64,000 nucleotides of DNA from Candidatus Bathyarchaeia archaeon (GTDB taxonomy: Archaea > Thermoproteota > Bathyarchaeia > Bathyarchaeales > Bathycorpusculaceae), in the NCBI GenBank assembly GCA_049512075.1, contig JBEKXL010000009.1, forward strand, positions 27,967 through 91,966, written 5' to 3'. Numbering within the stretch: the stretch's first letter is position 1; each line of letters starts with the position of its first letter. The notes under the pieces are model-generated. The model ran no database searches and was not told where the DNA came from. It saw only the letters and a program-made list of their open reading frames with translations. The position numbers and the translations under genes are program-made. This document shows, one piece after another, positions 38,614 through 41,303 of the stretch.

Positions 38614-39048
38614 TCAAGAGTTTGGGAAAAACTTGCTGTGTTCCTGCATCATGCACCTATTCATTACTACTATTATTCCTGCTTGCCTCGCCATTTCCGC
38701 AGCTTGTTCATTGATTATTCCGAGTTGCATCCAGACTACGTAGGGCTTATCATAGCGTTCCTTGAGCTTGACCGCCTGTTCCACTATGGCAGGTGTGTCT
38801 GATGAAGGTCTGAAAACGTCAACGATCTCGATAGTTTTCTGAACATCAGCGGGCATTTCCAAGAGGCTCTTGTAACACTTTTCACCCAGAACCTCGTCCG
38901 CCGTGGGGTTCACAGGTATGATGCGGAATCCTTGGCCTTGCAGGTACTTGGCCACGCGATTACTGTCTTTAGAGGGGTCGCGAGATGCTCCCACGACCGC
39001 GACGGTTTTGTACTTGGTGAGAATTTCTTTCACATCGTCCTTCGTCAA
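38614..39048 (-). CDS. CoA-binding protein (YccU-like)
   Basis: VAVVGASRDPSKDS, IIPVNP, VDVFRPS, WMQLGI, MNRC. Confidence 0.92.
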   Translation of the reverse strand: MTKDDVKEILTKYKTVAVVGASRDPSKDSNRVAKYLQGQGFRIIPVNPTADEVLGEKCYKSLLEMPADVQKTIEIVDVFRPSSDTPAIVEQAVKLKERYDKPYVVWMQLGIINEQAAEMARQAGIIVVMNRCMMQEHSKFFPNS

Positions 39049-39130
39049 GGCTCCAGCCTCTTCGAACTCTGAAGAGCTGTTTCTGGTACTTAAAGGCTCC
39101 AGTGTCCGGATACTGACTTTATGAAAGACG

Positions 39131-39277
39131 CCTCCTAAACTTTGTTGGCTGGTGTGCCCGGACTTAACATGGTCCTTTGCGACCGAGATACTGACTGGGC
39201 TAAACCTGAGCTGCTAAAATAGTGGGCTATTGACGCCCGGATGAGTGAATGCAGCCTGACGCCAACAAACAAGGAGG
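39131..39277 (+). ncRNA. Predicted bridge RNA / seekRNA of the IS110 element
   Basis: Outer stem TTTGTTGGC/GCCAACAAA; two hairpins with internal loops whose strands match the target flanks and the donor junction. Confidence 0.8.
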
Positions 39278-39287
39278 TGCAATAAGA

Positions 39288-40332
39288 ATGGTGTATGTTG
39301 GAGTTGACGTTGGAAAGAGCAAGTGCAGAGCGGCGATGATGAGCCAGGAAGGTAAGATAACTGAGGAGTTTGACTTCAAGAATGATTCTGAAGGGGATAT
39401 CGCGTTTGGCCTCGATGCTTACGGTGGATGACCGGGTTGTGATGGAGTCTACAGGAGCTTATTGGCTGAACCTGTACAATCATTTAGATGAGCTGCATAT
39501 TCCTGTGGTGTTGGCGAATCCGTTGCAGACCAAGGCTATAGCGCATGGAAGAATCAAGAGCGACAGAGTGGACGCTAGGATACTGGCTCATCTGTTGAGG
39601 GCTGATCTGATTCCGGAGTGTTACGTGCCGCCTAAGGAAATGCGGGAAATAAGAAGCCTAGTTCGTCATAGGCTTTCCACAGTGAAACTGCGTACCATGA
39701 CAAAGAACAAGGTTCACGCGTTGGTGGATCGGAACGGGGTGAAGCATGAATTCTCGGATCTGTTCGGCAAGTCAGGAGTGCAGTGGCTCAAATCGCTGGA
39801 GCTTTCTTCGTTGGATAGGCTGATGCTGGATAACCATCTTTTGCTTTTAGAGAGTCTTAACGTGCAGATTGAAAGGGTTGATGATGAGATTACGGCGAGA
39901 GCTACTTTGGATGGGGATGTTCGGTTGCTCTTGAGCTTGACGGGTGTGAGCGTTTATACGGCGTTGCTGATCAAGTCGGAGATTGGTACCATCGGTAGGT
40001 TTCCAAACTATAAGAAGCTGGTTTCGTGGGCTGGTTTGGCGCCTTCGCTGCATCAATCTGGAAACGTGGAGTATCATGGGAACATTACTAGGCAGGGTAG
40101 TCGGATGTTGCGTTGGATTATGGTGGAGTCTGCGCGTGTGGCGTCTGTTCGTGATGCTAGGCTTAGGGTTTTCTATGAGAGGGTGAAGGCGAGGCGTGGG
40201 GATCAGAAGGCTGTGGTTGCTTTGGCGTGTAAGATGCTTAAGATAGTCTGGTTCATGTTGACGAAGCGGGAACCGTATGAATCTGCGAATGAGAAAGGAT
40301 ATTGGAAAAAGCTTAATTCGTTAAACAGCTAG
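39288..40332 (+). pseudogene. IS110 transposase/recombinase with a frameshift at GGGG 39393-39396
   Basis: YVGVDVGK, VMESTG, KSDRVDA, AGLAPSLHQSG, ITRQG; N-terminal 36 codons are in a different frame from the rest. Confidence 0.88.
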
Positions 40333-40418
40333 AGGAGGAATGCTGGCAGCAGGTAGGCTTTAGGTAGCCAGCCACAAAGCGTCTTTCATGAGTGTTAAGT
40401 TATTTGTGGTGAAGTAAC

Positions 40419-40992
40419 CTACTTTCTTTCGCCCCATTGTCTCTTCGTGATATTTGATTTTAAGATGGTATGATACTCAGGTCGATTGGCAAATTTTGGA
40501 TTGGGGATGATTTGCTCTTCCAATTCAATAAGGTCGATATTAAGTCCCTTCACGTTCTTAGCTCGTAATGCCTCTTCATATGCAGGCTTACTGAAGGAAA
40601 AGGCAACAAATAGTCCTTCCTTTGATTTCTGTTTTTCAATGGTTGTTTCAAATCGTTCAATTTCGGAATACCCTATGCCTTCCGAACCTTTGATTTGAAT
40701 GGGAATTGTACTCATAATCCATCCGTCTACGTTACCATCCGCTCTTGGTCCCGCTCCCTTTGGGGTTGTGGAAACCGCACCTAATTTTTCGCACACCCAA
40801 TTCTGGAACTCAATCGGGTCCAAGTCTATCATCTTCTTGATTTCATTAATGCGTCTCGGTAAATCAATTATGTCATCAATGCTAGTCTTGACATTTTGTC
40901 TCTGTAGCCTTTTTACCATAATTTTGCAGGCGGTAGGGGAAATGTCGATACCCCCCCATTTTCTAATTTGAGTATTAGCTGCCACAAGAGCG
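40419..40992 (-). pseudogene. 5'-truncated DNA methyltransferase / Mrr-like endonuclease fusion
   Basis: LVAA..RKWGGIDISP (end of an N6/N4-MTase), then FQNWV..DGNVDG..IQIK (Mrr-type nuclease motif); cut at GCGCGCGC 40993. Confidence 0.75.
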
Positions 40993-41002
40993 GCGCGCGC
41001 TA

Positions 41003-41148
41003 GCGTGTTCCTAAATTCCCTTTTTTGGGCGTGACGAGTTGGTTAATGTCCTGCAGACGATACTTCTCGCGTCAATAGTCACACGGTCATCCTCGAACCA
41101 AGCGAGCCTGTAACAAAAACCAGCTCGCGAATGAATTTAGGAACAGGC
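41003..41148. mobile_element. MITE-like element, copy 2
   Basis: GCGTGTTCCTAAATTC (41003-41018) / GAATTTAGGAACAGGC (41133-41148), 15/16 complementary. Confidence 0.65.
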
Positions 41149-41303
41149 ATGCGCGCTATTTTGCAATAAATTATGCATGATCTGACTACTATGATAGGCG
41201 CTTTCTTCGCTCTCTGGATTCAACACAAATAACTTAACAGTATCCAGTGTCCGTACTCCATATAAGATTCAAGTGGACCTAATTCTCGTTGAGGAGCGGC
41301 TTC

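Follow-up and report, generated by a model that had tools for sequence, protein, structure and literature searches.

Does an archaeal insertion sequence (IS) choose its landing site with an RNA that it encodes itself, and can the guides of that RNA be read against the flanks of the element? The question is raised by a locus in a 64,000-nucleotide stretch of a Candidatus Bathyarchaeia archaeon genome (GenBank assembly GCA_049512075.1, contig JBEKXL010000009.1, positions 27,967 to 91,966; hereafter the window). A preliminary description of this DNA had pointed to an IS110 element preceded by a putative bridge RNA, with loops resembling the target and donor sequences of the element. We conclude that the segment 39114-40394 is very probably an insertion sequence of the IS110 family (sensu ISfinder), mobile through recombination guided by a bridge RNA. 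The element body covers 1277 bp of the forward strand, or 1279 bp counting one core dinucleotide. Its ends are laid out as TG, ACTTT-ATGAAAGACGC ... GCGTCTTTCAT-GAG, TG, with subterminal inverted repeats of 11 bp. Coordinates of all features are collected in Table 1.

Guides, flanks and the empty site

The RNA gene is located upstream of the recombinase gene, whose start codon is at 39288. An outer stem, formed by TTTGTTGGC (39141-39149) and GCCAACAAA (39261-39269), encloses two hairpins with internal loops, bounded by the inner stems GCCC/GGGC and GGTC/GACC for loop 1, and GCTGC/GCAGC and GGGC/GCCC for loop 2. This architecture, proposed in the preliminary description, was recovered by folding: the minimum free energy of 39116-39290 is -58.7 kcal/mol (z = -4.44), none of 200 shuffled sequences folded as low, and RNAalifold, run on 13 relatives and on 80 distinct ones, gave the same structure of five helices both times. 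Among these 80, compensatory pairs were found at columns 20/68 (UA 46, CG 26, UG 8) and 99/116 (GC 52, UA 11, AU 3, GU 10). G.U pairs are conserved at U34.G54 (78/80), U96.G119 (80/80) and G23.U65 (58/80); as they correspond to A-C mismatches on the opposite strand, they indicate that the RNA is read from the recombinase (+) strand. A covariance model was built from homologous ends, as had been advised, and these ends fold alike. It scores the window RNA at 108.7 bits (E 4e-33), a match obtained by construction, the window sequence having belonged to the training alignment, and in this genome it detects only the three copies used for training.

Both strands of the target are represented in loop 1. 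Its 5' strand is complementary to the core TG and to 6-7 nt of the right flank, and its 3' strand consists of 5 nt of the left flank, TG, and ACT, the first 3 nt of the element. All strings and coordinates announced for guides and stems were correct on re-check, including the two loop-1 identities (complement of the right flank, copy of the left junction) and that of the loop-2 3' strand with the predicted circle junction. The window contains exactly two copies of the 10-mer GATACTGACT, where 0.10 would be expected, and none of 100 shuffles reached this count. The 8-mer alone is unremarkable (4 occurrences against 2.08 expected, reached in 19 of 100 shuffles), and its weight rests on its position and on covariation within the family.

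Relatives were sought by scanning one genome per species. Twelve loci encode proteins with 60-80% best-segment identity, all in archaeal metagenome-assembled genomes (MAGs), mostly Bathyarchaeota/Bathyarchaeia, with some Nitrososphaerota and one Promethearchaeati; the contig of one of them belongs to a genome of the same GTDB family as that of the window. Loci L019, L022 and L024, on the same contigs as L009, L005 and L004, were counted once; L015, with only 100 residues matched and ambiguous ends, was excluded from the end and guide tables, and L013 is without a right end, as its contig stops there. A degenerate donor-loop pattern gave matches in 11 of 401 genomes of the class and, in metagenomes, in at least 120 stretches; all metagenomic figures given here concern the 80 loci listed among these matches. 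The pattern misses the window copy (guide TAAAAT), and such variants are under-sampled.

In the aligned RNAs the stems are near-invariant and both loop-1 strands vary by element, following the flanks. In the 13 genome-derived elements, agreement between the 5' guide and its own right flank extends to 6, 6, 5, 7, 7, 4, 6, 6, 2, 7, 6, 2 and 7 of the 7 non-core positions, compared with a mean of 2.31 for non-own flanks (n=156). The two values of 2 correspond to a one-base register shift, and several mismatches are G.T or U.G wobbles. The full match is 9/9 in L004, L005, L010 and L014, and 8/8 in the window. On the other side, the 3' guide matches its own left flank at 5/5 positions in 11 of 14 elements and at 4/5 in the remaining 3, the non-own mean being 1.69 (n=182). 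When guides were permuted over 10 distinct elements, leaving out L003, L008 and L011 (near-duplicates of L002 and L007), none of 20,000 permutations reached the observed match on either the right or the left side. In metagenomic elements, a left end is present in 70 of the 80 loci, and among the 63 parsed, the left guide matches the flank at 5/5 positions in 51 and at 4/5 in 12. The 40 listed elements for which both flanks are present represent 25 target classes, proteins and ends being almost invariant. Between a target hairpin and its own right junction, the longest exact run reaches a median of 7.5, against a mean of 4.2 with other classes. The covariation of guides and flanks, a check proposed in the preliminary description, is found in both sets.

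A variant right end was noticed in L021 (G272:C49), where four extra bases, TGAG, stand between CATGAG and the TG-CTCACCA that matches the 5' guide; this may be a short duplication or an imprecise insertion.

Loop 2 varies little, which is what one would expect of a loop that reads the ends of the element itself. Its 3' guide ATGAGTGA is unchanged in 12 of 13 relatives, L014 having ACGAGTGA; as this guide formed part of the search pattern, the genome and metagenome sets collected with it cannot test its conservation. The other strand had been said to match only partly, and this is the case in the window. It changes with the left end in relatives, where TAAAG or TAGAG pairs with the CTTTA of the left end; its position 4 is G in 8 of 14 listed elements with left end ACC versus 0 of 51 with ACT.

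Contigs of four public metagenome runs were then aligned to 38700-40700. In X7, from an independent sediment sample, a 958-nt contig with a 98% identical flank joins 39113 to 40393, skipping 1279 bases. The joint is exactly the predicted empty site, GATAC-TG-TTAAGT, with a single TG left, and its 2-base overlap fits a TG core kept once. A short core at both ends, kept as one copy at the empty site, with no terminal inverted repeats and no longer duplication, is a trait of the IS110 family. A 24.8-kb contig of X5 contains the element (39109-40402) with 22 differences (98% identical) between flanks different from those of the window; the shared sequence is limited by GATAC on the left and TTAAGTTA on the right. 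This copy between unlike flanks is a second insertion into the same 13-bp target. The target deduced in the preliminary description is thus seen empty in one population and filled again in another, and it is intact on the reverse strand at 41232-41244, the only exact unoccupied GATAC-TG-TTAAGT site of the genome.

This intact copy reveals what kind of sequence was hit. The IS interrupts the 21-mer GATACTGTTAAGTTATTTGTG, of which a second copy, intact and inverted, lies at 41224-41244, and what the IS targets here is a terminal inverted repeat belonging to a second small mobile element. This host element (39100-41253 including its target-site duplications) measures 857 bp without the IS and has 21-bp terminal inverted repeats. 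In an X5 contig, 39108 runs straight into the sequence after 41253, with one copy of the 9-mer, so that this strain is without the whole host segment and shows the empty site of the host element itself. Three natural states are therefore available: empty, host element only (X7), and host element with IS (this genome).

The X5 data also contain an ends-only derivative of about 85 bp, 39109-39153 joined to 40346-40412, which keeps 38 bp of the left end and 47 bp of the right end, without RNA and gene; it is inserted in a target of the same kind and comes from a related population.

The recombinase frame is broken in the window, as had been noted, by one extra G. The first frame stops at 39431 and the second resumes from the GGGG run at 39393-39396. 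The first piece matches PF01548 with E 5.1e-5 and 23.5 bits, under the curated cutoff of 29 bits, the second with E 8.9e-22, and PF02371 is also matched (E 5.3e-21). Orthologues are intact, 347 aa long, and read ...NDxEGI... through the frameshift region; the X5 copy, without one base at 39393, has an intact frame as well. A contig of a separate assembly (X6, 38869-39429, 0 differences) carries the extra G too, so that this G is a genuine allele in the window's population and not an error of assembly. Because of this shift the window copy makes no recombinase and is inactive as it stands; with its ends and RNA intact, it could move only with a recombinase supplied in trans. No intact recombinase of the family was found elsewhere in this genome, searched by protein and by covariance model. 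Intact alleles are those of L004, L005, L007, L008 and the X5 variant.

The motifs VGVDVGK, VMESTG, SDRVDAR and GLAPSLHQSG are nonetheless all present in the window translation, and the stop codon (40330-40332) lies about 60 nt from the right end. Against PDB, the orthologue L004 matched the transposases of ISCro4 (E 1e-18) and IS621 (E 5e-16). In the ISCro4 alignment, VGVDVGK, VMESTG and SDKVDAR match their counterparts, and AGLAPSLHQSG is inside the aligned C-terminal stretch; the roles of the catalytic D, E, D, D and Ser (G--P----SG motif) are those described in PMC11208158.

A cut-off second IS110-family gene, 35.6% identical to that of the window over 247 aa, lies on contig C70 (1266 nt), which may be a contamination of the MAG (4.19% estimated). 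Being cut off and too distant, it was rejected as a source of recombinase.

Short elements with the RNA and without the recombinase

The two further RNA copies of this genome, on contigs C19 and C14, are inside 288-bp elements (hereafter minis) that have no recombinase gene and share the ends of the full-length elements. Aligned with full-length L014, a mini matches both of its ends, over 156 bp on the left (1-156) and 109 bp on the right (180-288), and by this alignment minis are clearly internal-deletion derivatives. Their loop 1 reads TTTGACCA / TAAAA-TG-ACT, and they are found in the sites CCTAAAA-TG-GTCAAA and CCTAAAA-TG-GTTAAA, within the terminal repeat of an abundant repeat with GCGCGC ends that resembles a MITE (miniature inverted-repeat transposable element). 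A 19-mer of this terminal repeat has 52 matches in the genome, and 14 exact mini sites are unoccupied.

Minis are not confined to this genome. A 297-bp mini of separate origin, closest to L009, was found in another genome of the class (G158). Among the 43 complete metagenomic elements listed, 19 measure 229-431 bp and 24 measure 1268-1288 bp, a ratio skewed to short elements, which fit short contigs better. One full-length metagenomic element, L036, carries the same guides as the minis of this genome. Minis without any open reading frame (ORF) keep the RNA fold.

Such copies might not be mobile at all, but in-place deletion remnants of full-length elements. The clear internal deletion of the mini, and the lack of an intact family recombinase in this genome noted above, would fit this explanation, which we nevertheless hold to be unlikely. 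The two genomic copies share their deletion and differ by 1 nt in 288, although they have different right flanks and lie in two different MITE subfamilies, which implies that the mini moved after the deletion arose. Three metagenomic copies of about 300 bp (L059, L095, L099) likewise have one guide in common and differ in their right flanks. Finally, the guides of minis match their own flanks, the left one at 7/7 positions in 15 of 18 listed short elements.

As to what minis do, we advance a tentative proposal, possible but somewhat less probable than its opposite. Minis would form a natural guide-only class, with a complete bridge RNA made of their own target loop and the family donor loop; they would borrow the recombinase of a resident full-length element and choose their own landing site, and their RNA could redirect a full-length element in trans. 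The family as a whole would then be a third IS110/IS1111 arrangement, combining IS1111 polarity and long subterminal repeats with a crossover site that has shifted to the opposite side of the RNA gene. The left-end repeat TTTATGAAAG might double as a TATA box, so that integrated copies, minis included, would express the RNA without a circle-junction promoter. That this repeat, placed about 25-30 nt ahead of the outer stem, would act as an archaeal TATA box is a speculative idea of ours.

The abundance of guide-only minis suggests that bridge RNAs can themselves be a unit of selfish spread. Surveys that keep only recombinase-adjacent RNAs, such as bioRxiv 10.64898/2026.10.21.760802, would miss them by design.

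The MITE-like family has members of about 130-190 bp whose terminal repeats start with AGCGCGCATGCGTGTTCCTAAAATGG..., at more than 50 places of the genome (e.g. C1:117510/117643, C7:26492/26653). A short member (about 170 bp) is nested in the host element of the window, at about 40993-41157, and the landing sites of minis are longer members. The full-length relative L014, from another MAG, is in a similar ...AAAA-TG-GTTTTTATTC site.

Proposed mechanism and competing explanations

By homology with IS621 and ISEc11, the element would excise as a circle joining ...CATGAG-TG-ACTTTATG..., and the RNA of the + strand would bind a recombinase tetramer. Loop 1 of this RNA would hold the target GATAC-TG-TTAAGT, loop 2 would hold the circle junction, and strands would be exchanged at TG. 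By analogy with a handshake guide, the extra ACT of the loop-1 3' guide would pair with the incoming left end after exchange. The deletion derivatives of 229-431 bp, which keep ends and bridge RNA without recombinase, have very probably spread independently, each with a target guide of its own.

Several observations weigh against guided recombination. RNA transcription and the circular intermediate are inferred, as are recombinase binding and the promoter, and the aligned contigs, all of them assembled, showed no circle-junction joint. In loop 2, the core stays unpaired with the 5' guide, this guide fails to match the left end at 1 of 6 positions in the window and also in 6 of 14 ACC-type elements, and there are no flank-dependent handshake bases, the A[A/T/G]T being near-constant in aligned relatives. 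Some right flanks match poorly: L006 has only 6 contiguous nt, and 7 of the 36 listed metagenomic elements that were scored reach only 3-5 over 9 nt, some of these poor matches being due to fixed-register parsing. Finally, the related sequences share ancestry, and counts overstate their independence.

A competing explanation accepts the element but lets the protein read DNA, both for the target and for the ends, the loops then being DNA-level features such as copies of the sites used for synapsis or a 5' leader of the recombinase mRNA with a cis-regulatory role. Protein might bind at the 11-bp subterminal inverted repeats, and the structured region stands directly before the ribosome-binding site and start codon. 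This explanation does not account for the presence of both target and donor strands in paired internal loops of conserved hairpins, nor for compensatory stem pairs and strand-specific G.U pairs, which are a constraint on RNA and not on duplex DNA. It is also hard to reconcile with 25 target classes served by almost invariant proteins and ends, and with the conserved fold of ORF-less minis. As the homologues IS621 and ISCro4 are moreover RNA-guided (PMC11208160, PMC11208158), we regard recognition of the DNA by the protein as very unlikely. That the matches are chance repeats in a GC-rich hairpin region before an ordinary transposase, with no guiding role, would agree with the ordinary frequency of the 8-mer in the window, but is refuted by the 10-mer count, by guides that track flanks in 13 genome-derived and 63 listed metagenomic elements, by the outcome of the permutation test (0 of 20,000), and by the discovery of the predicted empty site.

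Relation to known systems and neighbouring features

Taken by itself, the element adds one more member to a known kind. With IS621 and IS110-type elements (PMC11208160, PMC11208158) it shares the DEDD RuvC-like and Tnp domains with a catalytic Ser, a bridge RNA in the left non-coding end upstream of the recombinase, and a pair of internal loops, target loop first and donor loop second, with a 2-nt core within the pairing. The extent of pairing is also the same (8-9 nt for the 5' loop strand, about 7 nt for the 3' strand), as are the extra target-loop 3' bases that pair with the donor after exchange, and natural reprogramming. The strand roles, in contrast, are mirrored: in IS110-type elements (IS621, ISEc21) the bottom-strand match is 5' of the top-strand complement (PMC11208160, PMC11187229), whereas here the top-strand complement (39162-39169) precedes the bottom-strand match (39187-39196), in 13 of 13 elements with both flanks. 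The core is TG rather than CT, the subterminal inverted repeats reach 11 bp instead of being absent or 2-3 bp, and the donor loop differs by its lack of flank-dependent handshake bases. Protein similarity to IS621 is distant, the match cited above covering two partial stretches.

The element also resembles IS1111-type elements (ISEc11, ISPa11, ISKpn4, IS4321/IS5075), in which, according to PMC11187229, the top-strand complement is also 5' of the bottom-strand match and subterminal repeats are within 7-17 bp, with a few extra bases outside. The 347-aa transposase is within their range of 330-350, the motif GL-P----S(T)G is present as GLAPSLHQSG, and repeats are targeted, including transposon terminal repeats, as by IS4321/IS5075 with Tn21-family ends. 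The RNA region, however, is upstream here and normally downstream of the transposase in IS1111-type elements; it is upstream in only 'a few' members (ISMtsp17 is named), with an RNA described as uncharacterised (PMC11187229). The identity with IS4321/IS5075 proteins is 22.5-22.9% over 96-97% of the length (E 4e-7 to 2e-8), weaker than the matches to ISEc45 (E 3e-18) and ISCro4. Judging from protein sequence, the family appears about equally far from both types, and we file it as IS110 family in the broad sense. The IS110 label of the preliminary description is right at the ISfinder family level, but guide order and long subterminal repeats are IS1111-like. From this mixed layout, it follows that RNA position and guide polarity are separable traits.

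For minis, the nearest precedent is MITEPpu9 of Pseudomonas putida (PMC12288879), a short recombinase-less module with IS110-family ends and a small RNA gene, which apparently spread by means of the IS transposase in trans. The RNA of ISPpu9 (Ssr9), however, is downstream, dispensable for transposition and not described as a guide in that source, whereas the minis found here carry a complete two-loop bridge RNA with guides matching their own insertion sites. In the literature searched, with supplements outside its scope, we found no description of recombinase-less minis with a complete, self-matching bridge RNA. Nor did this literature describe IS1111-like polarity and repeats together with an upstream two-loop RNA, although the supplements of PMC11208160 and PMC11187229 may list such elements.

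The closest annotated proteins are also archaeal, namely IS110-family transposases of haloarchaea (40-44% identity). One of them, encoded by Halanaeroarchaeum sulfurireducens pHSR2-01 (43.6% identity over 95% of the length), has a non-coding stretch of about 300 nt upstream; at this locus (L148) the Bathyarchaeia covariance model gave no match at E up to 1. Archaeal IS110 recombinases were already known, 662 having been counted (bioRxiv 10.1101/2024.06.21.599552), and large surveys of bridge RNAs beside recombinase genes exist (PMC11208160; bioRxiv 10.64898/2026.10.21.760802). What the present family adds is a fully readable, naturally reprogrammed bridge-RNA system from archaea, in which at least 25 natural target specificities are covered by a single conserved RNA scaffold and a recombinase that hardly varies. 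Its intact alleles, with documented empty and filled sites, make a candidate set for RNA-guided recombination outside bacteria. It also bears on the link proposed between IS110 recombinases and archaeal Nop5/C-D box ribonucleoproteins (bioRxiv 10.1101/2024.06.21.599552).

Table 1. Positions in the window of the insertion sequence, its RNA and guides, and the host element. Metagenomic counts are among the matches listed.
Feature	Positions	Strand	Remarks
9-bp target-site duplication of host element, left copy CAGTGTCCG	39100-39108	+	Same 9-mer at 41245-41253
Left target half GATAC	39109-39113	+	First bases of the host element's left terminal repeat; same as loop-1 3' guide 39187-39191
Left core dinucleotide TG	39114-39115	+	TG before left end in 14/14 genome-derived and 70/70 metagenomic elements
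Element body	39116-40392	+	Conserved ends ACTTTATGAAAGACG ... CGTCTTTCATGAG; relatives 1272-1288 bp
ACTTT spacer	39116-39120	+	Separates left core from left subterminal repeat
Left subterminal inverted repeat ATGAAAGACGC	39121-39131	+	Reverse complement of 40379-40389; kept in relatives
Bridge RNA gene: outer stem, target-binding hairpin, donor-binding hairpin	39143-39272	+	Fold, RNAalifold, covariance model
Loop-1 5' guide ACTTAACA	39162-39169	+	Reverse complement of right junction TGTTAAGT (40393-40400)
Loop-1 3' guide GATACTGACT	39187-39196	+	Identical to left junction 39109-39118
Donor loop 5' guide TAAAAT	39215-39220	+	Pairs with left end ACTTTA, 5/6
Donor loop 3' guide ATGAG-TG-A, ATGAGTGA	39241-39248	+	Right end, core and first base of left end (predicted circle junction)
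Recombinase gene (N-terminal DEDD_Tnp_IS110, PF01548, and C-terminal Transposase_20, PF02371)	39288-40332	+	Pfam; frame broken by one extra G, run 39393-39396
Right subterminal inverted repeat GCGTCTTTCAT	40379-40389	+	Followed by GAG (40390-40392)
Right core dinucleotide TG	40393-40394	+	TG at 42/43 metagenomic right ends
Right target half TTAAGT, then remainder of the left terminal repeat of the host element (TTAAGTTATTTGTG...)	40395-40415	+	
188-aa ORF of host element	40419-40985	-	Weak Mrr_cat restriction-endonuclease-like match, PF04471 E 3.4e-6
Host element right terminal repeat	41224-41244	-	Holds uninterrupted target GATACTGTTAAGT (41232-41244)
9-bp target-site duplication of host element, right copy CAGTGTCCG	41245-41253	+	

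A search of 38900-40600 with Rfam 15 (E up to 10) returned no bridge-RNA family. Four weak matches to archaeal C/D-box snoRNAs (sRNAs) in the recombinase coding region, at 39302-39366 and 39913-39972 (12.2-15.4 bits for gathering thresholds of 40-45, E 1.8-9.7), were rejected as due to chance; they are mentioned only in view of the C/D-box link discussed above.

No further copy of the host element ORF was found in the genome. Solo copies of its 21-nt end motif are present at C1:243794, C1:243852, C2:150270, C17:14495, C20:6298, C20:6799 and C43:2345; as no obvious inverted partner was found near them in the genome, only the pair of the window is called a terminal repeat. These solo copies have 0-4 mismatches, and most of them deviate from the IS target at 1-2 guide positions.

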